Virus record (IMG/VR): IMGVR_UViG_2814123113_000001
Span: 1 to 64,000 of that record
Strand: one strand, 5' to 3'
Source of the DNA: a virus
Taxonomy: Duplodnaviria > Caudoviricetes
DNA: 64,000 nt
The notes under the pieces are model-generated. The model saw only the letters and a program-made list of their open reading frames with translations, was not told the DNA's origin and made no database searches. Position numbers and translations under genes: made by a program. Positions 1,200-62,608 of this stretch are shown here, in pieces (the stretch's first letter is position 1; every line of letters begins with the position of its first letter).

Positions 1200-1248
1200 G
1201 ATGCTTCTCGCTATGAGACGAACGGCGTTCGCCTTGCTTAAGATCGCG

Positions 1249-4365: not shown

Positions 4366-4830
4366 TCAGGCCATGCTGTCGGCCAGGATCACCAGGTCGC
4401 GGAACTGCTGGTCAGACATGCCCAGCGCCGCCTTCGTGCTCTCGGTTGTGACGCCGGCGGTGACGAAGTTCTGCGCACGCGCATACTCGGCCAGGGCCAG
4501 AACGCTCTTCGGATGCGGCAGCGATGCGAACGCCGCTCGTATCGCTGCGTCGAGATTGTCAAAGCCCGGCCAGGGCGTGATCAGCGCCGCCTTGAGGATC
4601 TTGTGCATGGGCACTTCGGCCGGCAGAGGCGTGACGGTGACCGGCGGCGCCTCGAGGTCGATCGACCACGCCCCATCGGCGCCCAGGCGCGCGAACGCGC
4701 CCGGCTCCACCGCCGGCGGCTCGGTCTCTACAAAGGTCCAGCCCGGCAGGCACGGCGCGGCCAGGTCGACGACTTCGATCGCGTCGGCGAGCAGATAGCC
4801 ATGCGCATCCAGTTTGACGGTCCACATCAC
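4366..4830 (-). CDS. Tail fibre assembly/chaperone-like protein
   Basis: Directly downstream of the tail fibre; WTFVETEPP and GAW motifs resemble fibre chaperones. Confidence 0.55.
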   Translation of the reverse strand: MMWTVKLDAHGYLLADAIEVVDLAAPCLPGWTFVETEPPAVEPGAFARLGADGAWSIDLEAPPVTVTPLPAEVPMHKILKAALITPWPGFDNLDAAIRAAFASLPHPKSVLALAEYARAQNFVTAGVTTESTKAALGMSDQQFRDLVILADSMA

Positions 4831-10900: not shown

Positions 10901-11753
10901 GGCCCGCCATGAAGGCGACATCGATCGACAGGGCGTCGCTTTCCAGCGGCGCGGCCCGGGTGATCCATCCCGAGGCCTGCTTCACGGGAAGCGCGAGGCT
11001 ATCCTCGGCAGGCGTTCGCTGAAACCAGATCGGCTCCAAACCCTCGTCATGGCGCGTCGACCAGCGGACATTGACGCCCTCGAAGCTGGCAAGATCGGTC
11101 TGGCCAATCCGCGCGCCCTCATGATCCACCCACGTCACGCAGGGTTGGAACATCTGACGCAGATAGACCGTGTTGTTGACCGTGACCGTGTACCAGTTCG
11201 CGCAACGCGGCGGATAGATCCGCCGACGCCCCATGATGATCGGGATCGCCTCATGCGGTCGCGCGGCGTTCGATCCGGCGTCCAGCGAATAGCGCTGCTC
11301 GCGACCCGCGACCTCAGGCTGTTTGATCGGCGCGATGGCGTTGACGGCGATCATGCCGCCGACATTGACAGCCGCTGTCGCACCAGCGGCCGCCAAGCCC
11401 GACAAGCCGATCGCGCCAGGAACCCAGACCGACAGCGCGATGACAGCGATCTGCAACAGGGTGCGAACGGCGTTCGACCCTGCCATCGGCGCAACCTCGA
11501 GCACGACCGTGTCATCGGCGCGAGGCCGCAAGCCGGACCAATCGCCTGCTGAAACCTTGACGCCGGAGACGGAGATCCGAACCCAAGGCCGCAGGGCCGG
11601 GTCCAGCGTGCCAGAGACCTCAAGCGAGACCACCATCTCCGCCAGGCTCAAACCCTCGGGCAACGCGTGCAGGCTGACCTCTTCCTCGCGCGCGAGCGGG
11701 CGAGGCGAGACCACCAGCGAGGTCTTGCGATCCATCAGGGCGTCAACCGCCAT
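7926..11753 (-). CDS. Tail tip / host-specificity protein (TipJ-like, with gpI-like N-terminal domain)
   Basis: 1275 aa; IPIIMGRRRIYP, SRNPA, coiled-coil repeats near the C-terminus; follows NlpC/P60. Confidence 0.85.
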   Translation of the reverse strand: MAVDALMDRKTSLVVSPRPLAREEEVSLHALPEGLSLAEMVVSLEVSGTLDPALRPWVRISVSGVKVSAGDWSGLRPRADDTVVLEVAPMAGSNAVRTLLQIAVIALSVWVPGAIGLSGLAAAGATAAVNVGGMIAVNAIAPIKQPEVAGREQRYSLDAGSNAARPHEAIPIIMGRRRIYPPRCANWYTVTVNNTVYLRQMFQPCVTWVDHEGARIGQTDLASFEGVNVRWSTRHDEGLEPIWFQRTPAEDSLALPVKQASGWITRAAPLESDALSIDVAFMAGLFETKESSGNPKNRSVTFEFRYGPRGGDPSSAAPCPFAGAGGLLTFTRDKLDSYRLGWEWPVARGQYDVHVRRITNEESNNPKISDELTWICIRSFRDEAPVRDLASKPWIELELQASDQLNGVPNDFNFIATSIVPEATATGPGDLIVSRNPADLFLAASYPPMSDVELDDDERAFAAIADWRATCEQQGWMCDLAEASEMSVGELLQRTAAAGRARPTLDYGALSVVVDWEKPLPRQMFTPRNVSGFRGDLVYPAPVHALRVRFANAEKDFADDVVTVFGQKPDGTFYDLDTADKYERVEVRDKVDADAVVLEGARMLAERVLRPEKFSFEQDVEYLTIREGDRAWLAHHVALVGEITGRVRARVTDESDPSLKGLRLDELVTMVAGRSYDLAWRPSADAALEVFPLETLPGQSDIVWFAAPIPSIGDQPLPGDQVTVFDHAVELLDVVVDRIAPKEGLKASITCVPYAEALQSVGDEPIPAYRTGVSRPPTLGGAVVVRRDGRAIEKVIDALAEGVSQAGNGVDIIAEQVGAIEAASRKAQLDILDARMKALGDLKAFEAILRQVLSGKPLGEVIAEQRQVLIDTNVVVGNNTAAIASEAVARQTAISAEAYQRTVLATDYNGFKATTSAELISISTATSTVAANLATVSTDYNGFKASASATLISVSNATSATAASLAALESTVAANKASADAGLLTVASDVSALSTQYTSLDATVAANKASADSSLSVLTTNVSAAASQITTLQSNVTGLSATVSSQASTLADVASKVAVARFVVEAAASGGRPARLALYSDSLGGSNIALSAAKIYFGDNTVLDDASDTLRSDLGSAAYIQAWGEAFGASSDLLLWFGPNGIGHWAASRSNAYFYLAKTAPYLGGSAVPTGGGSGGFEVNLSTPLVSGNRFGTGSATTDTVTATTSGGDGTVTYSWAYLSGASFSPSSTTGDAVAFTGSITALGQTLDGYWRVTARDSAGHVAFADVRILISENS

Positions 11754-12225
11754 AAACGTAAGCCCCCTCCAACCGGGACCCCCAGAACGCCTCGCCGGGC
11801 TCAGCCTCGTCGAGCGAGGCCGTGCGCGCGCCGCAGCCCTTCTGGGTGTGAATGAACCGTCGGCCGCCCAAGGACGTGCCGACATGCGTGGGAAGCCCAG
11901 CCACCAGAAACAGCAGCAGGGCGAAGCGCGGATAGCCGTTCTCGTCGGGCTCAACGCGGCGCCAGAGCGAGGCCTGAGCCCGCACGAAGGCGGCGATGTC
12001 TTCGGCGTCTCGACGATCGACGCCGCGGTAAAGATCGTCAGGCTCAGGCACCCGCACGCCAAGCTCGTGCTCCAGGATCAGGTAGTGCTGACCCCGGCAG
12101 TCACAGCCCCGGAACGACCGCCCATGCTCCACGAACGGGACCGGCATGTAGCGAGCGATCCAGGCGTCATCGCCCGCGATCGTCGGCGCGCGGCGAACGG
12201 CGTTCGCCCCTTTTGGCGGCTTCAT
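11743..12225 (-). CDS. NlpC/P60 tail-associated peptidase (gpK-like)
   Basis: PFVEHGRSFRGCDC, THVG and FIH catalytic motifs. Confidence 0.85.
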   Translation of the reverse strand: MKPPKGANAVRRAPTIAGDDAWIARYMPVPFVEHGRSFRGCDCRGQHYLILEHELGVRVPEPDDLYRGVDRRDAEDIAAFVRAQASLWRRVEPDENGYPRFALLLFLVAGLPTHVGTSLGGRRFIHTQKGCGARTASLDEAEPGEAFWGSRLEGAYVYGG

Positions 12226-17413: not shown

Positions 17414-17686
17414 TTAGAGGTCGATGACACGGCCAGCGATGGCGATGTCGGTTTCAGTGGCGGCGCGGGCGTCTTGCCTGGCGATCAGGGCGGAGATGGC
17501 CGTCGGCGCGCCCCGCACGACGCCACCGCGGCGAACGCCGTTCGTCGCCCGCAACAGCACGGCATGGGCCGCCGCAGGTGCGACGCCGACGGTCGGGGCC
17601 GGGACGTTCGGAAAGGCTTGAGACTTGCCTTCCGCTTCAGGCGCGGCTTCGTGCTCGGCTTCCGCCGATTTGGCAATCTTGGTCAT
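17414..17686 (-). CDS. Hypothetical protein
   Basis: GAGG RBS; ORF in the late operon. Confidence 0.65.
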   Translation of the reverse strand: MTKIAKSAEAEHEAAPEAEGKSQAFPNVPAPTVGVAPAAAHAVLLRATNGVRRGGVVRGAPTAISALIARQDARAATETDIAIAGRVIDL

Positions 17687-18959: not shown

Positions 18960-19320
18960 CGTCTTCCCGATCGGGCATCGCCAGCGGCCCCCAGAGGAAC
19001 CGGCCACCCGGCTTCGGCTTCATGTCTTCGGACAACCGCTTGACGCAGAGCACGCCCAGCTCGTCGCGATAGCGCACCCACCAGGTCTTTCCCGGCCGAG
19101 CGAGCGCTGTCACCGGCTGATAGTCAGCGGCGTCGAGATGCACAGCGTCGGCGATGACGCCCGTGCGGCTGACAAACCCGTCTATCGTCTCCTCGACCCA
19201 GTCACGCCGCACCGCGCCGCGAACCGTGCGCCAGCCGCCCGAGGGCGGGCAGACTTCCAGATCGGACCAGAGGTGATCGCGAACGGCGTTCGCGACGCGG
19301 GCGGCGTGCTCAGGTCGCAT
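18949..19320 (-). CDS. Head-closure / head-tail joining protein
   Basis: Size and position after the capsid genes. Confidence 0.55.
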   Translation of the reverse strand: MRPEHAARVANAVRDHLWSDLEVCPPSGGWRTVRGAVRRDWVEETIDGFVSRTGVIADAVHLDAADYQPVTALARPGKTWWVRYRDELGVLCVKRLSEDMKPKPGGRFLWGPLAMPDREDVVP

Positions 19321-22282: not shown

Positions 22283-23302
22283 GTCAGTCTCCTTCGCGGG
22301 GGATAGAGCCCCGGGCGCCTTGGCGGGCGGGGCAGGGGAAATCGGGGTCGCAAGCGAGGCCTTCAGGGCCTCAAACGCCTCGCGCTCGGTCATCACGGCG
22401 TCGATCAGCCCGACCTTGAGCGCCGAATAGGCCGGATCGTCGCTGTCGCCGTAGAAGCAGCCGGCCTGGGTGCCGATCACGACCTCTTCGGTCAGGTTTT
22501 CGCGGCCCTTGAGCACGTCGGCGACGAACCAGCGGCCGCACTGCTGCACATCCGCGTTCAAATCAGTCTTCGCCGTCTCCGAGAGCGGCTCGTCCCAAGC
22601 GCCATCGGTCTTTTTCAGGCCGAACTTGAACTTGGTGATGGTGAGACCGTCGGCAGAGAGACCCTTGCTCGCCTCACAGTGGCCAATGACCGCGCCGATC
22701 GATCCGACGCCGCTCTCGCGGGCGGCGACAACATGATCACCTTGGGCGACGATCCAGTACGCCGCCGAATAGGCCCGCTCGCAGAAAAACCAGATGGGCT
22801 TGCCGCCCGCCTTGGCGCGATTTTCTCGAAGAAACTTGGCGAGCTGCGGCAAACCAGCAGCGGCAATACCGCCATTGCAGCGGATGCGCCCAAAGACAGC
22901 CCGCACATTCGCGTCGGCGGCCATCTCCTCGAACGCCATCAGCAGGGTGTCATAGCCGTGATACCAGCAGTCGCCCCAGCCAAAGCCCTCTTCCATCAGC
23001 GGGCCATCGACTTCAATGACACCGACGCCATCCTTCAGCGCCCAGCCAAAGCCGATGTGCTCAGGCTCACCCATCCAGCGCGGCAGGGCGACCATCGGCT
23101 CGGTGACGCACGCGCCATCGTGCTCGGCGGAAGCCTCGGCGCGGAAAAGGCGGCGCGCGCCGCCGATGAACGCCGATAGAGCCGAACGCCGTTCGCCGGT
23201 CGCCACCACGCCCAGCATCTGGGCATAGGGCAGCACCGAGCTTTCGAGCATCAGCAATGGTCGGCCGGTCAGCTCGGCCGCCAGAAGAGCGGGATTGCGC
23301 AT
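21821..23302 (-). CDS. S49 prohead protease with C-terminal scaffold (gpC/Nu3-like)
   Basis: AYSAAYWI and GVGSIGAV motifs; acidic C-terminal scaffold region. Confidence 0.9.
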   Translation of the reverse strand: MRNPALLAAELTGRPLLMLESSVLPYAQMLGVVATGERRSALSAFIGGARRLFRAEASAEHDGACVTEPMVALPRWMGEPEHIGFGWALKDGVGVIEVDGPLMEEGFGWGDCWYHGYDTLLMAFEEMAADANVRAVFGRIRCNGGIAAAGLPQLAKFLRENRAKAGGKPIWFFCERAYSAAYWIVAQGDHVVAARESGVGSIGAVIGHCEASKGLSADGLTITKFKFGLKKTDGAWDEPLSETAKTDLNADVQQCGRWFVADVLKGRENLTEEVVIGTQAGCFYGDSDDPAYSALKVGLIDAVMTEREAFEALKASLATPISPAPPAKAPGALSPAKETDVKRSEVLAGLKKAGLNNDQIRAAMAEMPEDGEDAAPEGEDQADDTEVEDEAEAEGGEDEPAAKVNAKVAQAVLDLPEARGREKLAKKLAFQPGMTVAAAKELLASAGKETGLADRVRDPNLAPSGGTLDAALTKRLDPEAIYRRRKASTSRAA

Positions 23303-25183: not shown

Positions 25184-27399
25184 CAGGTTCCTCTCATGTC
25201 GCGTGCAAGCTTGAGCAGCGGGTGGACGTTGTCGACGGGATCGCCGGCAGGCGCCGAACGGCGTTCGGGAGCCGCGGCAGGCGTGTTCGTGGGTGGCAGG
25301 GCCGGAGCGGCTGACCACAGACCCTCGAGCGGTAGCTGCCCTTCACGCGACGGCTCTCGCCGCCGATCCGCGATCAGCCGCTTCCAGTCTTCCTCGGTCA
25401 TCACGTCGGGCAGGAACGACCAGGCGATCGCGTGGCAGTAGACGGCCATGTCCAACTGCTCGTTGCGGACACCCTTGACCGGTTCCCAGATCTCGTACTT
25501 CCGAGGCGGCTTTTTCGACGGGTCCGGCGGCAGCAGCACTTCGGCCGTCATCTGCTGGAAATCCAGCTCAGAGGCTGTGCCCTCTAGCGTCACTGATCCG
25601 GACAGATGCTCGCCAAGCTCGACACCGGCCAGGGTTTGGGCCAGGCCGAAGTAGATTTCCTTTTTGATATTGTGCGTGCCGACCAGATAGAGTTGGACCT
25701 CGCCGACAACGCGGCGTCCAACCTTGGCCTTTCGGCGGGTACCGGCCTCAATGGGGAAGACCTGCTTCTGTTCTTTCTCGGACGCGCCCTTCAGCGCCAT
25801 CACGTTCGGGCGGCCCATGCAGAACACGTAGGCTCGGTTCGTGTGGTGCCCGCCCGTATCGACGCCCACGCGGTCAAAACCGATCGGCCGACAAGCGTCG
25901 CCTTCATAGGTTCGCTTGGTGATGTCGGCTAGCTCTGACCAAGCTCTGGGATCAATCGGCGGGATCGGGATGATCCCGCTGTCGATCCGTGCGTAACGCC
26001 TTCCCTTGGCGCCCTCGGGCAGCGGACCCGAGGGACCAACTACCCAGACCGCCCATTCAATTCGGTCACCTTGAAGGTCGACGCCCAAGAAGACCGTCCA
26101 AGCCCAGGGCGGGATGCGCCCGCGCTCGACCATCGCGATGGCCGCCGCCTCGGCGCGCTTCTCGTAGAGGCGCGCGGTCGCGGGTCGATCGTAAGCCGCC
26201 TCGAACGGCAGCCCGAGCACCTGCTGCCAGAACGTGACCAGGGCCTCGGGATCATCGGACTTCATCGCCTCGTCGAACTCGACGAAGATCCGCGACCAGG
26301 TCGTGAACGGCGAATAGGCCTGCCAGATACCGTCGAAGGACGGGTCGCGCCCCTCGAGGAGGGCGCCCTGACAGTCCGGACCCCGGCGGCCTAGCCAGTA
26401 TTCCCACGCGCCGTGTTCGATGCAGGGCGGCGGCGGGATGTTCGGATGTTCAAGATCCGGTGTGCCGTCCGACCTCTGGTGCTGAAAGCAAGCCAGCCAA
26501 CCTCCGTTTCCGGCGTCGGCCTGGTCCAGCATCCAGCGCTTATGCTCGTGGCCGATAGACTGGCCGCAACTGTTCGATTGGCAGATGAAGAACGGTCGTC
26601 CGCCCTCGAACTGCATGTTCTCCCAAAGCAGGAGCTGCTTGGCGTTACAGTGCGGGCAGGGAACGTAGTACTTTTCGTGCGTACGCCGTTCGATCTCGAC
26701 CGTGACTGGGCAGTCGCCGACGAACTTGGGCGTGCCGCCACCCAACTCCTTGGCGTCATCGCCCCAGGCCAGTGTCCGGGTCCGGGCCTGACGGATCGGC
26801 GAACCCCGGCCGCCGACATCGCGAGGATAGGACGAGGGCTCTTCGAAGATCAGCAGGCCGATGTCGGACTGCTGAAGCTGGGCTTCGGAACCGGCGTTCG
26901 CGATCTTGAGGAAGCCGCCGCGAAACCGCTTGTGGTACTTGGTCGAGCTGTTCTCGGCCCCGGCCTTCACGGCCATGATCTTCAGACCGACCTTGGGCGA
27001 GGCCCGGATGTTCGGCGAGAAGACTTCCTTCTCGAAGTCCTTCTGCTTTTGATCGCTAGCGCAAACGACCATGGCCGAACGCGGCGCGGTGTCGATGCAG
27101 TGCATCGCCGAGTTTAGGAAGACCTGCGTCTTTCCGGTCTTTGCCGACCATCGCAGCCAGACCGATCCGCAAGGATGATCGACGCCGCTGACGTCCATCG
27201 GCCGCCGCATGTACGGCGCGACGCTGGTCTTCCACCGGCCGGTGATCCTCGCGCCAGACTCTGGCGAGATGTACCGATACTCGTCGGACCAGACCGAGAC
27301 GGTTTGTTCGACTGGCGGCGTCGCGTTGGCGGCGACCGCCGAGAACATCACCGCCCACCCGACCGCCAGGCCAGGGAACTGCGATCGAAGCGCGCTCAT
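25183..27399 (-). CDS. Terminase large subunit (gpA family)
   Basis: Walker A SAKTGKT, YYVPCPHC zinc motif, GVDLQGDRIE, VDTGG, RNEQLD. Confidence 0.95.
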   Translation of the reverse strand: MSALRSQFPGLAVGWAVMFSAVAANATPPVEQTVSVWSDEYRYISPESGARITGRWKTSVAPYMRRPMDVSGVDHPCGSVWLRWSAKTGKTQVFLNSAMHCIDTAPRSAMVVCASDQKQKDFEKEVFSPNIRASPKVGLKIMAVKAGAENSSTKYHKRFRGGFLKIANAGSEAQLQQSDIGLLIFEEPSSYPRDVGGRGSPIRQARTRTLAWGDDAKELGGGTPKFVGDCPVTVEIERRTHEKYYVPCPHCNAKQLLLWENMQFEGGRPFFICQSNSCGQSIGHEHKRWMLDQADAGNGGWLACFQHQRSDGTPDLEHPNIPPPPCIEHGAWEYWLGRRGPDCQGALLEGRDPSFDGIWQAYSPFTTWSRIFVEFDEAMKSDDPEALVTFWQQVLGLPFEAAYDRPATARLYEKRAEAAAIAMVERGRIPPWAWTVFLGVDLQGDRIEWAVWVVGPSGPLPEGAKGRRYARIDSGIIPIPPIDPRAWSELADITKRTYEGDACRPIGFDRVGVDTGGHHTNRAYVFCMGRPNVMALKGASEKEQKQVFPIEAGTRRKAKVGRRVVGEVQLYLVGTHNIKKEIYFGLAQTLAGVELGEHLSGSVTLEGTASELDFQQMTAEVLLPPDPSKKPPRKYEIWEPVKGVRNEQLDMAVYCHAIAWSFLPDVMTEEDWKRLIADRRREPSREGQLPLEGLWSAAPALPPTNTPAAAPERRSAPAGDPVDNVHPLLKLARDMRGT

Positions 27400-29954: not shown

Positions 29955-31594
29955 GCTGCCTCCGACCGGTTGAGGTACCGCTGCACCAGGCTCTGGAGCT
30001 TGCTGACATCGCGCGTGACGATGCGTTCCTCGCCCGGATCGACGATGCCGTGCGCTTGGCTGGCCTTGAGGCCGTTCACGTCCATCATGGGCGGATCGGA
30101 ACCGTCGACCGCGACAAGGAAGATCGCCGTCACCGGCTCTGGCCAGCAGGCCTGACCCTCGCGATTGAGACGCCCGATGCACTGCGCATGCATCTGCGGC
30201 GACCAGTCCAGCTCGCCGAAGATGGTGACCTTGGCGCGGGCCTGGAGCCCGTCGAGCCCAGCCCCCGAGCGCAGGCTCATGATGAAGATATCGCTCTCTC
30301 CAGCCAGGAAACGGCGCTTGGCCTCTTCCTTGCGCGCCGGTGTCTCCGTGCCGGTGTACATGACCGGATTGAGGTCACTCAGCTCGCTCAGCCAGATGTC
30401 GTAGACGTCGCGGTGCCACCCCAGAAGGATCAGCGGCTCACCCGCCTCGGCGACGATCCGCGCGTACTTGGCCACGGCCTTGGCCTTGGCGACGCCAGTG
30501 TTGAGCCGCATCATCATGTCCAGCTCGCGCACAGCCTGACCACGCTCTTCGAACGTGCCCGTCGACGCCCGGATAGCCAGCGCGTGCGCCAGGTGCTCGA
30601 CCCGCTCCAGGGCCTCGACCTCGTGGTCGATCGTCTGGACGATGATGTTGGGCTTTGGCCCCGGCGAGACCTTGCGGATCATCGCATGCTGCTCTCGCAG
30701 ATACGTGCCCAAAGCCTCAGGATCTTGGACTTCCCGCCCGCTACCACACCACTCGCGCGCGAAGTCTTCGTACTCGCCCAGCACCTCAGGGCGGCAGTAC
30801 TGCATGATGCGCCAGATCTCGTTGCCATAGTTGAACACCGGCGTGCCGGTCATCACCATGCGCATCGCCGAGGCTTCGGCTAGACGCAGCGCCGCGACAC
30901 CCTTCTGGGTGTCGGTTCCGTGCCGCAGCTCATGCGCCTCGTCGAAGATCACGAGACCGGTCCCGAGCATATCCAGCACGTCCGCCCAGCCCTGGAGCTG
31001 GGTGTAGGAGAACACCCGCACATCGCACGGCGGCAGCGGGTAGGGCTTCGTTGTCGAAATGACGTGCGGTTCGAGCGTCGTGAACTCGCGCAGCTTCTGA
31101 GCCCACTGGCCTCGTAGGTGCGTCGGGCAGACGACGGTCGCCGGCAGCGCGCCGGGCAACAGGCACGCCCCGCCGCCGGTATAGGTCTTGCCCAGCCCCA
31201 TCTCGTCGCCGACCAGCACGCCGCCAAACCGCCGCACCATCTCGATTGCGCGCGCCTGGTGCGCCCGGATCTCTTGGCCAGGACGCAGGCCCGCGAGCAG
31301 CGTCGGCTGATAGTCCGGCGCCAGGATGGCGGCCATTTCGTCCTGCACCCGCACGAACGCCGTTCGTCGCCGCTCCAGCTCGGCCAGATCACCGGCAGAG
31401 GCCTGCAAGGGGTAGCGCTGCAAGAACCAACTCACGTCGGCCGAAGTCGCCTCATTGGCCGGCAACTTGAACGGCCCGGCCGAGGCCTTGGGCACGCTAG
31501 GGAAGATCGCCTTGAGCTTGATAGCAACGTGGGGCTCGACGTCCTCGAGCACCCAGCATTCGCCAGCGCGCGCCAGCTTTCCATAGGTCCTCAC
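29951..31594 (-). CDS. SNF2-family helicase/ATPase
   Basis: GDEMGLGKT, FDEAH, TGTP, SGAGLDGLQ, QCIGRLNREGQ. Confidence 0.9.
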   Translation of the reverse strand: MRTYGKLARAGECWVLEDVEPHVAIKLKAIFPSVPKASAGPFKLPANEATSADVSWFLQRYPLQASAGDLAELERRRTAFVRVQDEMAAILAPDYQPTLLAGLRPGQEIRAHQARAIEMVRRFGGVLVGDEMGLGKTYTGGGACLLPGALPATVVCPTHLRGQWAQKLREFTTLEPHVISTTKPYPLPPCDVRVFSYTQLQGWADVLDMLGTGLVIFDEAHELRHGTDTQKGVAALRLAEASAMRMVMTGTPVFNYGNEIWRIMQYCRPEVLGEYEDFAREWCGSGREVQDPEALGTYLREQHAMIRKVSPGPKPNIIVQTIDHEVEALERVEHLAHALAIRASTGTFEERGQAVRELDMMMRLNTGVAKAKAVAKYARIVAEAGEPLILLGWHRDVYDIWLSELSDLNPVMYTGTETPARKEEAKRRFLAGESDIFIMSLRSGAGLDGLQARAKVTIFGELDWSPQMHAQCIGRLNREGQACWPEPVTAIFLVAVDGSDPPMMDVNGLKASQAHGIVDPGEERIVTRDVSKLQSLVQRYLNRSEAA

Positions 31595-32423: not shown

Positions 32424-34961
32424 TTACGCGGCCTCCGTCGCTGGAGCTGGACGCTCGCCGATGAGGTCGAAAAGGGTTGGCGTCGCCATCTCGCGCGCCA
32501 TCGCCTCGACGTGCTTCACGCCATCCAGGAAATAGGCGGGGTTCAGCTCGTTGGCGCACCCCCGTCGCCCAAGCTTGATCGCGCGGTAAGGCACGGTCAT
32601 CAGCCCGCCGAACGGATCGAACACCATCTCGCCAGGCATGCTGAACTGCGTGATCAGGCGATCGACGATGTCGAACGGCAGCGGGCAGAGATGTTTCTCA
32701 GCGCCTTTCTGGGCCTGCACCGTGTTGAGCGACAGCATCTGGGCCACGTCCGTCCAGACGTCGTCGTGCCAGGAATGCGGCGGCAACAGCATGAACGTCG
32801 GCGGCAAACGGCCGACCGCCGTTAGCGCCTCGCCGATCTGGACATGGTGCTCGAAGTCATAAAGCCGCTGGAGATTGAACCCCTTCCACAGGCGGTAGAC
32901 CTGATCGGCGTCCTCGAACTTGGCCCACTCCTCAGGCGCCACCAGACGATCCCCGGCCGAGCGCATGAGGTGATGCGCATCGAGCTGCCAGCGCGCCCGC
33001 GTGTAGCTGTCCTTGTCCTTGGCCACCGGCAGATCGGCATAGCCGTTGGAGCGATCCGAGGGCGGCTTGCGGAACAGCAGCACCTTCTCGGGCAGCCCCG
33101 CGCCCATGCGCGAGCCGTCCTTGCACTGCTCCGACCAACCCAACCGATAGGTCTGGTTGTTCTCGCGAACCACGTCCGTCAGGTTGGTCTTCTCGCCGAG
33201 ATAGGCGAAGCCATGACGACGGAAGGCGACGCGGCAGTCGTCGGCGAAGGGATAGACGGTCTGGAAGCCCAGCCCCGTCATGCCGCCCGGCACGATCCGA
33301 TCCTTGACGTGAATGGCCGCCACGCGCCCAGGCTGCAGGACTCTGAGCAGCTCCGGCACCAGATAGTCCATCTGCTGCCAAAAGTGCTCGTTGTCGTCGG
33401 TGTGGCCAAAGTCGGCGTAGTTGGGCGAATACTCGTACTGCGTCGAGAACGGGATCGACGTGACGATCAGGTCGACGCTGCTATCGGCCATGCGGCGCGT
33501 CTCGCGCACGGTGTCGTCATTGACCAGACGATAGCCCTCGCCCTCGACGACGATCCGATCCTTGACGCCCATGGCGCGCGTCAGGACCCCAGCCATGTCG
33601 GCGTTCGACAGGCCATAGTTTCGAATGATCGCGCTCATGGTCGCGGCCATCTCCTCGTGCTGAGCCCATTTTTCCTGAAGGTTCCGCAGCACCGCGCGCT
33701 CGCTCTCGGCGTAGATCACGTGGATCTCGACAGGATGCTGCTGAAGGAACCGCTGGATGCGGTGAATGGCCTGGATGAAGTCGTTGAACTTGAAGCCGAT
33801 GCCCAGGAACACGGCCTTGTGGCAGTGACGCTGAAAGTTACAGCCCGACCCGGCGATGACCGGTTTCGCCGCGAGGTAGGGGAACCAGCCGTCGCTGAAA
33901 TGCACGATGGCGTCTTCGCGAGCGTCGGGATCTTGCGCGCCATAGACGCTGACGCATTGCGGAACGGCCGCCTCGATCGCCGCGCGCTCGGCCTCCAGGT
34001 CATGCCAGAGGATGTATCGCTCATCCGGATCGGCCCGCAGGATCTCGCACATCTTCAGGACGCGAGCCTCGAGCGTGTCGCGCTTGACCTTGCTGGCCCC
34101 AACGATCCCCTGCGCGTCGTCCTGAAACAGGCGATGCTGCCCGCTCTTGTCGACGCCGGCGGCGCGGTGATCGACCGGAACCTCGTGATAAATGACCTTC
34201 AGCTCGGGAAGGGCGTAGCCCTCGTCGCTGAAACCCAGGTCCGACGGCCGCTGGACAAACAGCGCCCAACTGGCGACCCAGAGCCAGAACTCCTGTTCCT
34301 TGTGCGGGTGAAGGGTGAGGTTATCGGCGTTCTCGCTGTCGCGCTTGAAGAACCGCGTCTTGGCCTGCCCCACGTCCATCACATCAAGGAAAGCTGAATA
34401 GGCCAGCAGCTCGATGTGATCGTTCGGCGAGGGCGTCGCCGTGCCGACGAAGCGATAGGCGACCCTGTCGAACAGCCGCATGAACTCGCGAAAGGTCTTG
34501 CTGCCGCCAAAGCCGCGGAGGCACGAGGCCTCGTCGAGGCAGGCCACCGAGAAGTGGTTCGGGTCCAGCTTGCCGTCGCGCACCGTCTCGTAGTTCGTCA
34601 GATAGATCCCTCGAGGGTCGGTCGCCTCCTCGATACGGCGAATAAAGGTCACGTCGATGCCCAGCATCGCAGCGTCCTTCCGGAACTCCTGACGCACACC
34701 GAGCGGCATCACGATCAGCGCGCGCCCACCGACCAGGTCGCGCATGATCCGCGCGATCTCCAACTGCATCACGCTCTTGCCCAGGCCGAAGGCGGCAAAG
34801 ATCGCCGCCCGTCCCCGCCAGACCGCCCACCGCACGATCGCCCGCTGGTGCGGCTTGAGCAGCGGATTGATGACCTCATCACCGATCTCGAACCCGCATC
34901 GCGGCGCGGGCGGCACCTTAGCGGCAAGGAAGGCGTCATAGTCACGAACGGCGATCGTCAT
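32424..34961 (-). CDS. SNF2-like helicase fused to an N4/N6 DNA methyltransferase
   Basis: N-terminal FGLGKS, DEAS, TATPSPND; C-terminal VTSIPF, HLCPL, VFDPFGG. Confidence 0.9.
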   Translation of the reverse strand: MTIAVRDYDAFLAAKVPPAPRCGFEIGDEVINPLLKPHQRAIVRWAVWRGRAAIFAAFGLGKSVMQLEIARIMRDLVGGRALIVMPLGVRQEFRKDAAMLGIDVTFIRRIEEATDPRGIYLTNYETVRDGKLDPNHFSVACLDEASCLRGFGGSKTFREFMRLFDRVAYRFVGTATPSPNDHIELLAYSAFLDVMDVGQAKTRFFKRDSENADNLTLHPHKEQEFWLWVASWALFVQRPSDLGFSDEGYALPELKVIYHEVPVDHRAAGVDKSGQHRLFQDDAQGIVGASKVKRDTLEARVLKMCEILRADPDERYILWHDLEAERAAIEAAVPQCVSVYGAQDPDAREDAIVHFSDGWFPYLAAKPVIAGSGCNFQRHCHKAVFLGIGFKFNDFIQAIHRIQRFLQQHPVEIHVIYAESERAVLRNLQEKWAQHEEMAATMSAIIRNYGLSNADMAGVLTRAMGVKDRIVVEGEGYRLVNDDTVRETRRMADSSVDLIVTSIPFSTQYEYSPNYADFGHTDDNEHFWQQMDYLVPELLRVLQPGRVAAIHVKDRIVPGGMTGLGFQTVYPFADDCRVAFRRHGFAYLGEKTNLTDVVRENNQTYRLGWSEQCKDGSRMGAGLPEKVLLFRKPPSDRSNGYADLPVAKDKDSYTRARWQLDAHHLMRSAGDRLVAPEEWAKFEDADQVYRLWKGFNLQRLYDFEHHVQIGEALTAVGRLPPTFMLLPPHSWHDDVWTDVAQMLSLNTVQAQKGAEKHLCPLPFDIVDRLITQFSMPGEMVFDPFGGLMTVPYRAIKLGRRGCANELNPAYFLDGVKHVEAMAREMATPTLFDLIGERPAPATEAA

Positions 34962-37509: not shown

Positions 37510-37914
37510 CTAGTCCTCCATCCCCATGCGTTGGCGGCTCGCAGCCGCTTGAGCCGCGCCCTGTTCGATCAGAAAGTCGGTGAAAGCCTTCGCGTCGGCG
37601 GCCAGGCCTGCGGCGAACGCCGTTCGGGTGCTTGCGCCCCCATCGACCCAGAGGCGCGCCCGCTCCAGAAACGACTTGGCCCAACGGGCGCGGATGTCAC
37701 CGCGCTCGACCGGGAAGTTGTCACCCGTCAGGCCGCGCAGGCTGTTGGCGAAGTCGTAGGGCGTCTCGGAAGGCGCATCGAAGGCCTTGAGCGCGTACTC
37801 GAACATCGTGATCCACGCTCGCCGATCAGGCGAACGGCGTTCGGGCGTACGCGGCGCCGAGCGACGCGGCAGGCCGCTCACATAGCCAGAAGAGCGCGAG
37901 GGATAGCGGCTCAT
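37510..37914 (-). CDS. Hypothetical protein
   Basis: ATGA-coupled ORF. Confidence 0.65.
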   Translation of the reverse strand: MSRYPSRSSGYVSGLPRRSAPRTPERRSPDRRAWITMFEYALKAFDAPSETPYDFANSLRGLTGDNFPVERGDIRARWAKSFLERARLWVDGGASTRTAFAAGLAADAKAFTDFLIEQGAAQAAASRQRMGMED

Positions 37915-41772: not shown

Positions 41773-41775
41773 GCC

Positions 41776-42102: not shown

Positions 42103-42511
42103 CCCCTTCGAGCAAGGCGACCAGCCAAGACCGTCGCTCAAGACCGAACGCTGTTCGGCTGAGGTCATCTCCCTCACCGAATGGGCGGCCTCCCGTCGCC
42201 GTAGCGAGCCACCGAGCTGGGATCAGCACGCGCTCGACTTGCAACCCTATCAGCGTGACGCCTTGGCGTGGCTGGAGCGCCAGGACGCGCTGAACGCCAA
42301 CGACCTTTGGGCTGCGCAAGCCGCGACGGCCTATCTCGGCGACCGCATCGCCATGCCCGCCGCGGCGATCGAGGCCGCGTTCGACGCGAGGACCGGCCGC
42401 TTCGACCTTCCGGCCTATGTGGCCAACACCCTTGATGGCGCGCCGGCCGTCCTGCCACTGCCGCAACCCCCTGTCGGCGTGATCACGCGCCTGCTGCGGA
42501 GGCTGCATTGA
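42095..42511 (+). CDS. Hypothetical protein
   Basis: Coupled ORF. Confidence 0.65.
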   Translation: MRSPFEQGDQPRPSLKTERCSAEVISLTEWAASRRRSEPPSWDQHALDLQPYQRDALAWLERQDALNANDLWAAQAATAYLGDRIAMPAAAIEAAFDARTGRFDLPAYVANTLDGAPAVLPLPQPPVGVITRLLRRLH

Positions 42512-43124: not shown

Positions 43125-43312
43125 CGCGCTGGCGCGAAGGCGACGCCGCGCGCGTCGTCGACCTGACCGATCTGAAGATGCCCGGCAAGGGACGGCCACC
43201 CTTCGCCAAGGACGACATCGTCCGGGTTCGGCGCGTCTCGCCCGACGGCAAGCGTCTGGTTCTGGACACACACCCGGGCTGGTTTTCCGCCCATCGCTTC
43301 AAGCCGCTCTAG
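43121..43312 (+). CDS. Small SH3/KOW-like hypothetical protein
   Basis: ATGA-coupled; WFSAHRF C-terminus. Confidence 0.55.
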   Translation: MTRWREGDAARVVDLTDLKMPGKGRPPFAKDDIVRVRRVSPDGKRLVLDTHPGWFSAHRFKPL

Positions 43313-43320
43313 GAGCACCC

Positions 43321-45561
43321 ATGTCAGCCTTGACCGTCATGGCGTTGGAAAACGCCGACATTCTGCGCGCCCTTAGGTCATCGAAATTCGAGACCGTCAG
43401 CGATCTTGCGCGCACCCTCGAACGCGACCCCAGCAATCTGCGTCGCAGCCTGACACGGATGGCCGATGACGGCTTGCTGGCGGTGGCCAATCTGTCGCCG
43501 CTGGACGCCAGCCTGACGCTGTCGGCTCAGGCCGCCCTTGAGGCGCTGGACCGTGCCGACGGCGCCGAGGTCGCCACGACGCCCGCCGGTTATGTCGCCC
43601 TGCGTCACGACCAGATCTTGCCCGATCCGGAAAACGCCCGCACCAGCTCGGGCCTGTCGACGTCGTCCATCTTCGAGATGGCCGACAGCCTCGCCGACCA
43701 GGGCATGCTGCAATCGCCCGCCGTACGCCCTGCGGCCGACGGCGCGGGATATGTGCTGGTCATGGGCGAACGCCGCTGGCGTGGTTGGGGCCTGTTGATC
43801 GAACAGGGCCGGTGGACAGCGGACAAGACGATCCTCTGCCGCCTCGACGATGGCGACGATCTGGCGCGGCTTGAGGCCGGTCTGGTCGAGAACCTCCAAC
43901 GATCCGACCTGAACAATCTGGAAGCCGCCGAAGGCTTCCTGACGCTGTCGATCCGCCACAAGCGCACCGCGCAGCAGATTGCCAAGACGGTCGGCTGGAA
44001 CGAGCGGACGGTGCAGATCGCGCTCAAGGTCGCCAAGGAAGCCACCGACGCCGACAAGCAGAAGTACCTCGAAAGCGAGGCCGCCTATGCGCTCGCCAAG
44101 GAAACCGGCGAGGCGGGCGTCAAGCGCACCTTCACCTGGGAAGACCTTCGCGAGACCGTGAAGACGCCCAAATGGCGCCAGGTGCTGGACAAGCGCAGCC
44201 GCGTCTCGCTGCTCGTCATGGAACTGGCCTTCAAGCAGCTCAGCGACTGTGACGGCCCCGATGGGCTGACGCGCATCTCGGTTCCGCCCGGCGGCGGCTT
44301 CTGGTCCGAGGCCGAGGATCTTGGCCTGGTCAAGGACATGCGCGTCGATCAGGCCGTGTTCGCAGGCGTGACCGACCGCGCCCGGGAATGGCTGGCCGAC
44401 AACCAGTTCGACGCCGACCCCGGCGCGGCGCTCAAGACGCTGCGCATCGACGCCCTGGGCTCAATGGGCGAGCGGCTGGCGTCGGACGCGGGCCGCTACG
44501 CCACCGACTTCATCAACCCGCCCAAGCCGCAACCGCCAGCGCCCGAACCCAGCCCGGAGCCGCCAACTCAGGCCTCCGACGATCGCCGCGACAGCTTCAC
44601 CCGGCAGGTTCTCGCGGTCGCCGGTGATGACGCTGGAGATAGCCACGAGACCGCGCCGACGATCGACGCGGCCGCAATGGCTTATGGCGCGGCCATTGAA
44701 GAGCACGGGGCCTCTTCGCCCGAGGCCGTCGCAGGCCTGGAGGATCTGCGAGCCGCACGCGCCGCAAACAACGCGCCCTCCGCTCAAGACCCCAGCGCCC
44801 TCTACGCAGCCCTCGGCGGCAAGGTAGCCGCTCCAGCCAGCGAGGCGACGAGCGCCGTTCGCGACGAGGCGAACAATCCGGGCAACCTGGAGGACGACGA
44901 GTTTCTGGCCATCGCAGAGATCGCCCACAAGACCACGTTCGACGGCGTTGATACGCGCGGCGGCGCGATCCGTGGGTGCCGCGTCTTCTCGTTTCACACC
45001 GGCCCGGGCGCGGAACTGGCCAGCCGCCTCCAGCACAAGCGCATGCTGGGCTTTGGCCAGGCCGCCAGCGGATCGGGCTTTATCGCCTATCTGACGCAGG
45101 ACGCCTGGAACCTGATCGGCGAGGTTGACGACGAACGCCTCGAGGGCATGCGGCACGAGACGCTCGACACCGGCGACCTGACCGCGTTCGAGGCCTCGGG
45201 CGCCAAGTACGTGACGCCCTGGCTGGTCGATCCGGTGAAGACTGAGGAACCGGCGGCGCCCGACGCCGCAGACTCTGACGACGGCTCACCCTTCGCCGAA
45301 GACGAGGACGACGACGGCGAGGAAATGGACCATCATTGGTTCGACGCCGCCGCGCACCTGGGCGGCCGATGGGACTACCTGCTCGCCCTCCAGATGACCG
45401 CGCCGGCCCCGGCCGGGCTGGACGCCCCGTTCTACATCTCCGCCAAGAGCGAGGGCGAGGGCATGGTCGTCGGCGAAACCCTCGCCGGATCGGGACGCTT
45501 CAGCGACGTCAGGCTCTACCGCCGTAGCGGCAAGCTGCTGCTGCATTGGGGCGTCGCATGA
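43321..45561 (+). CDS. Large ParB/Spo0J-family protein with an extra N-terminal HTH
   Basis: ILPDPENAR, GMLQSPAVR, YVLVMGERRWR, LVENLQRSDL, central HTH AQQIAKTVGWNERTVQ. Confidence 0.9.
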   Translation: MSALTVMALENADILRALRSSKFETVSDLARTLERDPSNLRRSLTRMADDGLLAVANLSPLDASLTLSAQAALEALDRADGAEVATTPAGYVALRHDQILPDPENARTSSGLSTSSIFEMADSLADQGMLQSPAVRPAADGAGYVLVMGERRWRGWGLLIEQGRWTADKTILCRLDDGDDLARLEAGLVENLQRSDLNNLEAAEGFLTLSIRHKRTAQQIAKTVGWNERTVQIALKVAKEATDADKQKYLESEAAYALAKETGEAGVKRTFTWEDLRETVKTPKWRQVLDKRSRVSLLVMELAFKQLSDCDGPDGLTRISVPPGGGFWSEAEDLGLVKDMRVDQAVFAGVTDRAREWLADNQFDADPGAALKTLRIDALGSMGERLASDAGRYATDFINPPKPQPPAPEPSPEPPTQASDDRRDSFTRQVLAVAGDDAGDSHETAPTIDAAAMAYGAAIEEHGASSPEAVAGLEDLRAARAANNAPSAQDPSALYAALGGKVAAPASEATSAVRDEANNPGNLEDDEFLAIAEIAHKTTFDGVDTRGGAIRGCRVFSFHTGPGAELASRLQHKRMLGFGQAASGSGFIAYLTQDAWNLIGEVDDERLEGMRHETLDTGDLTAFEASGAKYVTPWLVDPVKTEEPAAPDAADSDDGSPFAEDEDDDGEEMDHHWFDAAAHLGGRWDYLLALQMTAPAPAGLDAPFYISAKSEGEGMVVGETLAGSGRFSDVRLYRRSGKLLLHWGVA

Positions 45562-45962: not shown

Positions 45963-46198
45963 CCCAACGCCCGCTAACCCTGGCCGACGTCATCGCCTAC
46001 CACGTCGCCGAGGCCGAGAACTACACCGCCAAGGCCACAGGCTGGGCACGCTCGGCCGAGCTGCTCAAGACCGGCCACAGCGTCACGAACGCCGTTCGTA
46101 TCGACCGGTTTGACGCCGCCGCCCAGCTCGCCGCCGACATCGCCGCGAAGCACGGCGAGATGGCCGACCTTCTCGAAACTCAGAGCACCCGGTCATGA
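45959..46198 (+). CDS. Hypothetical protein
   Basis: ATGA-coupled ORF. Confidence 0.6.
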   Translation: MTQRPLTLADVIAYHVAEAENYTAKATGWARSAELLKTGHSVTNAVRIDRFDAAAQLAADIAAKHGEMADLLETQSTRS

Positions 46199-49795: not shown

Positions 49796-51442
49796 ATGAC
49801 CATGCGCGTTGCGATCTACGCCCGATATTCCGATGACAAGCAAAACCCCGGCTCGATCGCTGACCAGCTCGCGCTCTGCCGTCGTCATGCGCGGGCGCGC
49901 GGCTGGACGATCATCAACGAATACACCGACGCGGCGATCTCGGCCGATCTGCTGGTCACCCGGCCGGGCGCTCAGGCCCTGCTACGCGCGGCCGAGACCG
50001 GAGCCTTCGACCTGATCCTGGTCGAGCACCAGGACCGCCTGTTCCGGAACCTCGCCGAGAACGCGACCGCCTTCAAACGCCTGACCTATTTTGGCGTCGG
50101 CATCGCGACCCTGGCCAAGGATCGCCTCCAGTTGATGGACATCGCGATCGAAGGCCTGATGTCCGAGCTGTACCTTCAGAACCTTTCGGACAAGACCAAG
50201 CGCGGCATGCACTCGAACGGCGAGAAGGGCCTTTCGATGGGCGGCCGCGTCTATGGCTACCGCTCCACGCCCGGCGGCGAGATGACGATTGTCGAGGATG
50301 AGGCGGCGATCGTACGAACGGCGTTCGGGCTCTACAACGAGGGCTGGAGCTGCCGCGACATCGCCGACCACTTCAATAAGGGCGACACACCCGGCCCGAC
50401 GGGAGGCCTCTGGAACGCCTCGGCTTTCAGCGGATCGCGGCAGCGCGGGAACGGCATCCTGCGGTGCGAGCTGTATGTCGGCGTCAAGGTCTGGAACCGG
50501 TTCGATAAGAGCAAGGACCCCGACACTGGTAAGCGCGTGCAGACGATCAAGCCCGAGGGCGAGTGGAAACGAACGCCGGTTCCGCAGCTCCGGATCATCG
50601 ACGACGCGACCTGGTCTACCGCCCAAGAACGGCTGGCCATCACGTCGGAGACCAAGCCCAGCACCCTGGCCAATCAGGCTAAGCCCGGCGTCTTCACCGG
50701 GCTGCTCAAGTGCGGCGCCTGCGGTGAGAACTACATCGTCGCGGGCCGCGCCCGGCTGCAATGCAGCACGATCCGGAACAAGGGCCGCCACGCGTGCGCC
50801 AATGGCCGCACGGTCGGCCGGGCCGCAGTCGAAGACCGCATCCTGACCGGCCTGAAAGATCGCCTGCTTAGCCCCGAGGCCGCCGCGATCTATGTCCGCG
50901 CCTATCACGAGCGCTGGAAGGCCAACGCCGGCGATCGGCGAGCCCGCCGCGCGCCGCTTGAACGTCGCCTCGCCGAGACCCAGCGCAGGATCGACCGCGC
51001 GCTGAACGCCATCCTCGACGGCTACGCCAGCGCCGACCTAAAAACGCGCCTGCAGAGTCTAGAGGATGAGCGCGACGCCCTTAAGCACGAGCTGGCCAGC
51101 ATCGGCGACGACGATCCGATCACGCTGCATCCCGGCCTCGCCGACGTCTATGCGCAGCGGATCAGCGACCTTCAGGAGAGGCTCGCGGCGTACACCAAGG
51201 GCAAGCCCTCGCCCAAGGACCGCCAAGCCATCGCGGCCGCCCGCGCCCTAGTCGATCGCATCGAAATCATGCCGACGTCTCACGCGCGCGGCGCGCACGT
51301 CGAGATCACCCTGTTCGGGGACCTCGCGCGCTTCCTACGTCCTGACCTCAACGAGGCTCAATGTATGAGCCTGCTGGTGGCGGGGGCGGTGTGCAAATCG
51401 GAACCCACTTCTGTTCTGGGTCTGGTCCGCGTGGCGGTTTAG
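49796..51442 (+). CDS. Large serine recombinase (integrase)
   Basis: AIYARYSDDKQ, RPG, DRLFRN; recombinase domain; GLLKCGACG zinc ribbon; coiled coil. Confidence 0.95.
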   Translation: MTMRVAIYARYSDDKQNPGSIADQLALCRRHARARGWTIINEYTDAAISADLLVTRPGAQALLRAAETGAFDLILVEHQDRLFRNLAENATAFKRLTYFGVGIATLAKDRLQLMDIAIEGLMSELYLQNLSDKTKRGMHSNGEKGLSMGGRVYGYRSTPGGEMTIVEDEAAIVRTAFGLYNEGWSCRDIADHFNKGDTPGPTGGLWNASAFSGSRQRGNGILRCELYVGVKVWNRFDKSKDPDTGKRVQTIKPEGEWKRTPVPQLRIIDDATWSTAQERLAITSETKPSTLANQAKPGVFTGLLKCGACGENYIVAGRARLQCSTIRNKGRHACANGRTVGRAAVEDRILTGLKDRLLSPEAAAIYVRAYHERWKANAGDRRARRAPLERRLAETQRRIDRALNAILDGYASADLKTRLQSLEDERDALKHELASIGDDDPITLHPGLADVYAQRISDLQERLAAYTKGKPSPKDRQAIAAARALVDRIEIMPTSHARGAHVEITLFGDLARFLRPDLNEAQCMSLLVAGAVCKSEPTSVLGLVRVAV

Positions 51443-53070: not shown

Positions 53071-53133
53071 GGACAGGCCTTGTATTGATGTTGACGGGAA
53101 AAGAGCGATGCGAACGCCGTTCGCACGCGAGGC

Positions 53134-58258: not shown

Positions 58259-58335
58259 CAGGGGCTCCAGGCATAGGGGGTCGCGCGAGCGCCTGCGGGC
58301 GTCGCGGTGATGCGAACGGCGTTCGCATGGTTGGG

Positions 58336-62213: not shown

Positions 62214-62608
62214 CAGCCCGCGCTCCACGCCAGAACCATGGCGGATCTCGGCAAGCGCTCTTGTCCGCGCTCGCCGGGCCCCACCAGGGTGTCACCTTCA
62301 ACGATGGCCAGCTGCAGCCGGCCTTCCAGATCCCGCCAGCCGGCGACATCGCCGCGCTGGGCATGCCCAGGGGCGACCGGCGTCAAGACGGCGCCCACCG
62401 CCGCCTCCAGGCCGCCCAGGCTGGCGATCAGCCGGGTCGCCTCCGCAGCCGATCGCCATTGGCCGCGATAGACCGCCAAGGGATCCTCGCCCGTCAGCGC
62501 CTGGACCGCGCCCGCCGCGAAGGTGACGCAGTCGTGCTCTCCCCATGCGAACGGCGTTCGCATGTGCGACGCCACAAACAAGTGCAGCGCCTCGTAATCG
62601 CGGACCAT
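62213..62608 (-). CDS. NlpC/P60-like tail protein (DUF6950-like)
   Basis: PFAWGEHDCVTFAA and AQRGDV. Confidence 0.8.
   Translation of the reverse strand: MVRDYEALHLFVASHMRTPFAWGEHDCVTFAAGAVQALTGEDPLAVYRGQWRSAAEATRLIASLGGLEAAVGAVLTPVAPGHAQRGDVAGWRDLEGRLQLAIVEGDTLVGPGERGQERLPRSAMVLAWSAG

Follow-up and report, generated by a model that had tools for sequence, protein, structure and literature searches.

A ParB-like protein of integrating phages and dispersed palindromes as its candidate loading sites

Introduction

Why would an integrating phage carry a ParB-family protein and no ParA? The question is raised by a gene at 43321..45561 (+ strand, stop included) in a 64,000-nucleotide stretch of tailed-phage DNA (Duplodnaviria; Caudoviricetes), positions 1 to 64,000 of IMG/VR record IMGVR_UViG_2814123113_000001, which we call the window. 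The original prediction for this stretch was that the 746-residue product of the gene reads an over-represented palindrome, CGAACGSCGTTCG, as a KorB-like sliding clamp. We find that genes of this family and dispersed palindromes accompany one another across genomes, whether the search starts from the protein or from the site, and we consider it probable that the protein is a phage-borne, ParA-independent clamp of the KorB/Noc type, with the palindromes as its cognate loading sites along the phage genome.

ParB-family cytidine triphosphate (CTP) switches are an active field, in which KorB, Noc, VirB and BisD are the characterised cases. A 2025 survey, in the part of it available to us, notes that orphan ParBs are abundant in prophages and are functionally a blank (PMC12704722). 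One such family here gains a testable partner, namely a defined palindrome with natural variants and an even, genome-wide layout. If our reading is true, long-range clamp-based control would extend from plasmids and integrative and conjugative elements (ICEs) to integrating phages, and site variants that differ between co-resident prophages would form a new axis of phage individuality.

Results

The palindrome is concentrated in two tandem prophages

The window is part of a 4.14-Mb single-contig genome, and the closest homologues (97% identity and lower) come from sources named Caulobacter. It contains prophage 1, at ~1.2-51.4 kb, and the beginning of prophage 2, which spans ~51.7-95.7 kb and runs past the window end; prophage 2 (window 51500-64000 plus genome 3,575,650-3,619,815) is complete and lies in tandem, directly after the prophage 1 integrase. 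The serine integrase gene at 49796-51442 confirms that prophage 1 is an integrating phage, as the original prediction had it. In both prophages the lysis, tail, head, terminase and replication genes are on the minus strand, and a divergent plus-strand block starts with a repressor-type gene, includes the ParB-like gene and ends in a large serine integrase. Otherwise the two have little in common at E < 1e-6, namely the integrases (58%), two lysis-region proteins and the 141-residue protein with its repeat ORF described below; the similarity of TerL and portal is weak, and the repressor-type genes are unrelated (XRE-type in prophage 1, LexA-like S24 in prophage 2). The ParB-like paralogue of prophage 2 has 25% identity to residues 1-401 of the 746-residue protein; its 796-residue open reading frame (ORF) call is over-extended, as the alignment begins at M255, and the true product is likely ~542 residues long.

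The over-representation of CGAACGSCGTTCG held up: the window has 15 copies against 0.02 expected, a count reached in 0/100 shuffles, and 21 of the 22 copies in the whole genome fall within 89 kb that correspond exactly to the two prophages (a reversed-pattern control gave 1 copy). In a scan of the genome by 164 windows of 50 kb, no single 6-N-6 palindrome exceeded 4 copies in any window outside the prophages. The lone copy outside the prophages (L004, genome 2,827,730-2,827,742) stands within a longer imperfect inverted repeat, cgcttg-core-gcaagcg, and looks like an unrelated hairpin.

In its 13-bp form, CGAACG-S-CGTTCG, the palindrome occurs in prophage 1 as 12 perfect and 5 one-mismatch sites over ~50 kb; ~0.5 one-mismatch sites would be expected from the 23 one-mismatch copies in the rest of the genome. 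The perfect sites begin just past the lysis genes, in an intergenic position (1219..1231), and continue within the tail fibre J-like gene (11464..11476), between genes (12194..12206 and 17532..17544), at a gene junction (19280..19292), within the 5' portion of the head protease gene (23183..23195), at the 3' end of the large terminase gene (25255..25267) and within a helicase gene (31354..31366). A pair of sites 217 bp apart (37614..37626 and 37831..37843) lies near the divergent junction, another site lies 525 bp past the ParB-like gene (46086..46098), and the last is within the serine integrase gene (50315..50327). One-mismatch sites are found at 4527..4539, 26680..26692, 34945..34957 (matching by offset a perfect site in the phage of genome G050, which is 97% identical), 42145..42157 (1.2 kb upstream of the ParB-like gene) and 44849..44861 (within that gene).

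The window also includes three sites of prophage 2, two of them intergenic (53111..53123, of the extended ATG...CAT type, and 58313..58325) and one ~60 nt inside or upstream of a gene start (62548..62560). Prophage 2 sites have conserved flanks, ATG-core-CAT, whereas prophage 1 sites show no flank preference. It had been suggested that the prophage 1 protein could act in trans on prophage 2. Such cross-talk is possible but not needed, because prophage 2 has its own paralogue and its sites have these extra conserved flanks.

The protein combines a ParB-type core with additional winged helices

The gene is a real ATG-initiated ORF whose 746-residue product has the order winged helix-turn-helix (wHTH), ParB_N, helix-turn-helix (HTH) and two winged helices. 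The N-terminal wHTH, ParB domain, GERRWR and ENLQR motifs and central HTH that had been read from the translation were all confirmed, with the domains traced by Pfam, a 16-sequence profile and an AlphaFold2 model. Residues 6-55 match winged-HTH families of Pfam (HVO_A0114 with 28.1 bits, cut-off 27.6; HTH_IclR with 22.4, cut-off 22), residues 111-193 match ParB_N (28.3 bits, curated cut-off 26.3) and residues 196-239 give a weak, sub-threshold match to HTH_ParB (17.6, cut-off 22.6); in addition, five PHROG families ('ParB-like partition protein' or unnamed) match the protein with E 6e-16 to 2e-12. The profile, covering residues 105-241, matches Caulobacter ParB (6t1f) with E 1.5e-29 as well as other ParB, Noc and KorB structures, that of KorB 8qa8 more weakly (E 3.8e-13). 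Because this alignment to ParB structures extends to residue 241, and because 6s6h, the ParB DNA-binding domain on its own, is matched by the profile as well (E 4e-11), the central HTH is a real domain. Foldseek with the N-domain and HTH gave probability 1.00 to 7bm8, 7bnk and 8qa9, the closest structures being CTP-bound ParB, KorB and Noc.

The AlphaFold2 model, built on 92 homologues with a mean predicted local distance difference test (pLDDT) score of 85.8, comprises the wHTH (residues 1-80, 43321..43560), the ParB N-domain with its ParB-CTPase fold (90-195, 43588..43905), the ParB-type HTH (199-262, 43915..44106) and a C-terminal half. The long C-terminus of the original prediction is present, and could be resolved further into two similar helix-plus-hairpin, winged-helix-like modules (~273-400, 44137..44520, and 525-640, 44893..45240), disordered linkers of Pro, Ala and acidic residues, and a small, confidently modelled alpha/beta domain (676-746, 45346..45558) that is a candidate for dimerisation. 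The first module ends in a Y-x-T-x-F/W-L/I-N-P-P motif. Modelled alone, the second is a winged helix (pLDDT 84.5) with modest Z scores of 6.0-6.5 to TubR, MarR and ScpB; Foldseek with the C-terminal model returned nothing at E <= 0.001.

The translation carries a GLLQ-type box I (GMLQSPAVRP), GERRWR (residues 149-154) and ENLQR (190-194). Four residues (R107, G149, R152 and N191) are invariant across 92 homologues that are 24-55% identical to the query, and seven others (N105, G128, E150, R151, R154, E190 and R194) are at least 90% conserved. These residues correspond to boxes I-III of the ParB CTPase fold, as set out in the available part of PMC12704722. By its motifs and profile matches the protein is a member of the ParB/Spo0J nucleoside triphosphate (NTP)-switch family (ParB_N, PF02195). 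The family numbers 840 representative clusters at E <= 1e-10, a count that takes in canonical ParBs, and 65 at E <= 1e-30, and most of the top 150 homologues align from residue 1. A tblastn search of 50,697 cultured-phage records gave only 2 weak matches, to the ParB_N domain alone, so the full architecture is absent from them, and a single-protein scan of viral contigs found no relative.

The statement that no ParA accompanies the gene also stands, since a scan of 105 ORFs from both prophages and their edges against PHROGs found no ParA-type ATPase. In addition, the ParA-binding consensus motif (L/F/I)G(K/R)G(L/F/I) occurs in 0/21 homologues. With neither the partner nor the motif, the protein is, as far as its sequence tells, not a canonical ParABS partition ParB.

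Family members and palindromes occur together across genomes

In a forward test, the surroundings of family members on usable contigs were scanned de novo for over-represented palindromes, with no motif assumed; loci on short contigs (G027, G081, G595, G619, G620 and G634, where G numbers are our genome labels) were left out, and for G050 and G082 the assessment used only the pattern and the coordinates of the protein. Dispersed palindromes or near-palindromes of 6/7-N-6/7 geometry, 3-19 per locus, were found at 30 of 32 loci, with the core variants CGAACG, CGAACC, CGAGCG, CGCACG and CAAACG. Within the genus Caulobacter all 22 loci were positive, with copy numbers from 3, on the shortest contigs, up to 19 and with CGA(A/G)C-N3-G(T/C)TCG as the underlying pattern. 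The site takes clade-specific forms (CGAACG.CGTTCG, cCGAACc.gGTTCGg, aTGCGAACG.CGTTCGCAt, TGCGAGCG.CGCTCGCA and GCGAACC.GGTTCGC), and that of G117 is consistently asymmetric (GCGAACCGGATTCGC, 8 copies). The G117 phage (L026-L028) also contains, at 23648-23722, four tandem GGTGACA-N4-TGTCACC inverted repeats ~24 bp apart, which are operator-like and unrelated to its dispersed sites.

Other genera of the same family gave 6 positive loci out of 7 in the blind scan, with CGAACG-type sites in G548 (10), G710 (5) and G618 (3 in 31 kb), 13 CGAGCG-type sites in G607, 13 CGCACG-type sites in G744 and 4 CAAACG-type sites in G539. A class-level sample of 401 alphaproteobacterial genomes yielded mostly chromosomal ParBs and three usable loci. 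G350, from another family, has 5 copies of GCGCACG-N-CGTGCGC, clustered in 31 kb next to the gene and with no further copy in its 4.5-Mb genome; G479, also from another family, has 5 copies of a near-palindrome of the same kind. The ParB-like genes of these two (on G350:C12 and G479:C1) encode no wHTH and stand just downstream of a small AlpA/excisionase-like HTH gene. Both loci may be integrative elements and not tailed phages.

In a reverse test, 127 genomes of the genus, of which ~21 have the gene, were scanned by site pattern without use of the protein. At least 7 copies of CGAACGSCGTTCG were found in G000, G013, G039, G050, G079 and G122 (background 0-5), with the gene in the cluster in 6/6; at least 8 of CGAACCNGGTTCG in G001, G055, G067, G079, G092, G122 and G126, with the gene in the cluster in 7/7; and at least 4 of TGCGAGCGNCGCTCGCA in G026, G067, G076, G082 and G096, with the gene in the cluster in 5/5 and zero copies in 120 genomes. 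The 13-mer CGAGCGNCGCTCG was not discriminating, having copies in 121 of the 127 genomes (0-11 each), and a flanked 17-mer was used instead. Contig C25 of G122 and G082 were apparent exceptions, which became positive once searched with a prophage-2-type query. Overall, 15/15 distinct motif-rich genomes encode a family member inside the site cluster, so that motif-bearing phages commonly lacking the protein, the outcome that the original prediction had named as counting against it, were not seen.

Five TerL-bearing prophage regions from genomes without a family match served as controls. In G077, G113, G020 and a 32-kb piece of G065 there was no family member, as judged with seven diverse queries, and no such palindrome; the best palindrome of G077 was a flank-less, GC-only CCGGCG-N-CGCCGG in 5 copies. 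G046, which had been picked as a ParB-negative control, showed 4-5 prophage-2-type sites and was then found to encode a family member with 36% identity to the prophage 2 protein and a site inside its gene. At the level of sequence, this amounts to a blind confirmation of the tie between protein and site.

These phages are mosaics. The ParB-like gene is present in 16 of 17 related regions, and in the 17th the ParB is on a neighbouring contig; it is the sole prophage 1 or 2 gene so widespread, the next being the tail fibre (10/17) and TerL (7/17). The flanks and core of a site follow the clade of its protein, yet users of one site type do not form a single group on the protein tree: the prophage 2 protein (CGAACG) is nearer to that of G026 (CGAGCG, 63%) than to G122b (CGAACG, 59%), and G039 (CGAACG) nests among users of CGAACC.

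Sites are evenly spread and often adjoin the ParB-like gene

Pooling 153 sites from 19 loci, we found a median spacing of 4.47 kb. The per-locus coefficient of variation of spacing averaged 0.50, against 0.81 +/- 0.06 under the null, and 0/10,000 simulations reached 0.50; sites are therefore spread more evenly than random placement would give. With crude gene calls, 27% of the sites are intergenic against 14% expected (p = 4e-5). Since the other 73% are inside genes, we conclude that most sites are not promoter operators. At 12/30 loci the opening 500 bp of the ParB-like gene contain a site (expected fraction 0.11, p = 3e-5), and at 27/30 there is a site inside the gene or no more than 1 kb from it (expected fraction 0.59, p = 2e-4).

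Conflicting evidence for the domain that reads the site

The site could be read by the wHTH or by the central HTH, and the sequence comparisons point both ways. In favour of the wHTH, the switch of the core from A to G in clade A leaves the recognition helix of the ParB HTH unchanged, while that of the wHTH differs with the switch (DPSNxR(K/R)G against D/V-R/T-SNx(R/K)RD), and N39 of the wHTH recognition helix is at least 90% conserved family-wide. In favour of the central HTH, the wHTH-less G350 and G479 keep dispersed sites of the same geometry, the half-site of G479 being the same GCGAACG, and the R-x-V-Q of the ParB HTH recognition helix is found in nearly all users of CGA(A/G)C, while the CAAACG user G539 has Q-Y-V-A.

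Neighbouring genes

Between the repressor-type and ParB-like genes of prophage 1, prophage 2 and G117 sits a 141-residue protein with an overlapping Asp/Gly/Tyr-repeat ORF encoded by a tandem DNA repeat (window 40997-41772). The pair has 81-86% identity between prophages 1 and 2 (L002:2458-2966) and 78% in G117, and has no Pfam or PHROG match. The XRE-type regulator is followed immediately by a WYL-TerB fusion (40174-40956; WYL at residues 52-105, TerB at 147-246), and an acyl-carrier-protein-like ORF (42508-42798; PP-binding, phrog_5934) is found two genes ahead of the ParB-like gene. Past the ParB-like gene, 47026-47712 encodes a 228-residue protein that matches phrog_4784 (E 3e-52), has no Pfam match and is His-rich and cupin-like by eye. 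A NusG-domain gene (28408-29019, minus strand; phrog_6386, 'transcription antiterminator') immediately precedes the terminase genes, where the early and late parts of the leftward operon meet. A scan of 37000-46500 for promoters and terminators gave the same counts as shuffled sequence, and so lent no support to the original prediction's placing of the ParB-like gene in an early operon behind OL-like operators.

Prophage 1 has two methyltransferase genes on the minus strand, a helicase-N6/N4 methylase fusion (32427-34961) and a C5 cytosine methylase (35514-37016), and prophage 2 has a different methylase (L001:17907-18746). Two roles for the palindrome were considered and rejected, namely methyltransferase target, as the enzymes of the two prophages have no similarity at E < 1e-6, and RNA hairpin or terminator, as a 1-nt loop cannot fold.

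Discussion

Given the co-occurrence and the site layout described above, we think that specific binding of the ParB-like protein to the palindrome is likely, and that nucleotide-dependent clamping and spreading is on balance the probable consequence. Dimers would recognise the palindrome and then bind nucleotide, most likely CTP, through the GERRxR/ENxxR pocket; the nucleotide-bound dimers would close into a clamp and spread from each site, and with a loading site each 4-5 kb they could cover the entire phage chromosome. The likeliest output would be genome-wide control of phage transcription, by silencing or by long-range activation, with compaction or marking of phage DNA being less likely. 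In both prophages the ParB-like gene, the repressor-type gene and the integrase run in the same direction, which fits either a silencer expressed in lysogeny or an early gene of the lambda-PL kind.

Several observations weigh against this interpretation. Most loci were found by way of the protein, and related ones do not count as independent cases. G697 gave no palindrome, though only 13.8 kb of it was in the scan, and G367 encodes a wHTH-ParB yet has no enriched palindrome in 100 kb. The core switch of clade A tracks the wHTH, yet relatives that have no wHTH retain their sites, and an outlier protein, that of G076, uses the clade A site TGCGAGCG while resembling clade A in neither helix. The original prediction had proposed covariation between HTH and palindrome as a check. 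Flanks and core do follow the protein clade, but no residue-to-base code emerged for either DNA-binding helix across 32 proteins. No C-terminal dimerisation domain is recognisable by fold, and residues 676-746 have no convincing structural match. Finally, CTP-independent ParB-like proteins exist, as the available parts of the reports on ParT of SCP2 (PMC12260392) and on the 5mYOX-associated ParBs (PMC13229309) describe. As a separate matter, a role as activator of 5mYOX, a T-dioxygenase, was rejected, as those ParBs are described in the accessible part of PMC13229309 as having no DNA-binding domain and no such dioxygenase is among the annotated ORFs.

These CTP-independent proteins lend some support to an alternative in which the protein is a stationary site-specific binder or a nickase, with ParB_N serving for oligomerisation, for contact with a partner enzyme or for nuclease chemistry. 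Three winged-helix modules besides the ParB HTH amount to more DNA-binding capacity than a clamp requires, and there is no recognisable ParB or KorB dimerisation domain at the C-terminus. However, three pocket boxes that are invariant or nearly so in 92 divergent homologues are hard to explain without nucleotide binding, and a regular spacing of ~4.5 kb suits coverage by spreading better than binding at points. We think this alternative unlikely.

We consider it more doubtful still that the palindromes are read by something else, be it the immunity repressor, another phage protein or a host factor, with the ParB-like gene as a passenger. There is a precedent for dispersed operator-like repressor sites in the 'stoperators' of Cluster A mycobacteriophages, discussed in the part of PMC4351075 available to us, and both the intergenic enrichment of the sites and the lack of a recognition code between either helix and the site variants could be understood in this way. 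However, prophages 1 and 2 share the 13-bp core yet have unrelated repressors, no other gene is common to more than 10 of 17 palindrome-bearing regions, the sites are palindromic without orientation and lie mostly in genes, and a site is in or next to the ParB-like gene at nearly all loci. A host reader is further argued against because site variants differ among phages of a single host genus and the host chromosome has one copy only. That the protein is a true partition protein, which recruits ParA or MipZ of the host so that an episomal or pseudolysogenic form of the phage is segregated, is very improbable: the domain core is nearest to chromosomal Caulobacter ParB, and the plasmid prophages P1 and N15 use ParB/SopB, with dispersed centromere sites in N15, but the ParA-binding motif and a ParA are missing from the sequences searched, these phages integrate via serine integrases, and the sites span the whole genome with no centromere cluster.

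A phage-borne clamp loaded at the palindromes remains our preferred reading. In its widest form, which we put forward tentatively and rate as rather less probable than the clamp itself, the family would coat the entire phage chromosome from evenly spaced, phage-specific palindromes and so make a virus-encoded 'chromatin' layer. Such a layer would set lysogenic silencing, the lytic programme or the protection of phage DNA, its specificity would diversify between competing phages as immunity groups do, and the same logic may cover the Cluster O repeat discussed below.

Among characterised systems, KorB, a ParB-CTPase and the global repressor of the IncP-1 plasmid RK2, has a similar arrangement of sites. 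Both proteins have the ParB_N nucleotide pocket followed by an HTH, with structural matches to 8qa9 and 8qa8, and both go with dispersed 13-bp palindromic operators. According to the available part of PMC11790492, the KorB operator is a palindrome with a central G/C and the core TTTAGCGGCTAAA, CTP-dependent sliding of KorB leads to long-range silencing, and, by the title of a reference in that paper, 12 sites are present over the replicon. In contrast to KorB, which partners IncC (a ParA) and the clamp-locking KorA, the phage protein lacks a ParA, the ParA-binding motif and any small neighbour gene that is conserved; it has an extra N-terminal wHTH and two extra winged-helix modules, and its replicon is an integrating phage. 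Because its sequence is nearer to chromosomal ParB than to KorB, we would call the protein KorB-like in site layout and not a member of the KorB family. To this extent the original prediction of a KorB-like reader is partly supported, by co-occurrence and layout but not by sequence family.

Chromosomal ParB, as represented by Caulobacter ParB (6t1f/7bm8), is the best match in sequence and fold over the N-terminal domain and HTH, with GERRWR and ENxQR aligning identically, and the embedding of a site in or beside the parB-like gene is a further likeness to ParB-parS. Unlike chromosomal ParB, the phage protein is without ParA and the LG(R/K)GL motif, its sites are dispersed evenly over the whole element and not clustered near an origin, and the site sequence and C-terminal half are unrelated. 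Noc, with structural matches 7ol9 and 7nfu, is likewise a ParA-independent ParB paralogue. It has many palindromic sites dispersed over its replicon and acts through an N-terminal membrane-targeting helix. The N-terminus of the phage protein is a winged helix in the model, and Noc is host-encoded.

BisD of ICEclc, a long-distance activator, is described in the accessible portion of PMC12409273 as a ParB-like CTPase with an extra domain and no partition role that spreads over ~50 kb of the element. By analogy, the phage protein may be another ParB-like clamp on an integrated mobile element, also with extra domains. However, BisD loads at two bisS sites only and works with BisC, whereas the phages here have 9-19 evenly spaced sites and no identified partner. 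The 2025 survey describes, in the part available, many divergent prophage ParB-like proteins without the ParA-binding motif, some with a canonical-like organisation (PMC12704722); that part gives no cognate sites or function and contains the word 'winged' 0 times, and the supplementary datasets might list the present architecture.

A literature search that had supplementary lists outside its scope turned up no publication in which a ParB-like protein of a phage is connected with dispersed palindromes. The nearest earlier observation concerns Cluster O mycobacteriophages and their unexplained 17-bp palindrome, TGTTCGG-NNN-CCGAACA, of which, according to the available part of PMC4351075, more than 30 copies occur throughout the genome, mostly not at promoters and in both intergenic and intragenic positions. 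These phages encode a protein with a ParB-like domain, Corndog gp90, which the authors did not, in that part of the paper, connect with the repeat (PMC4351075). We found 27.7 bits for ParB_N in gp90 and rejected it as a relative, since only this domain is in common and there is no pairwise similarity. The Cluster O half-sites are in the opposite arrangement, and those phages are not obviously temperate. If the reading proposed here is true, it might nonetheless explain orphan dispersed palindromes in other phages, the Cluster O repeat being one example.

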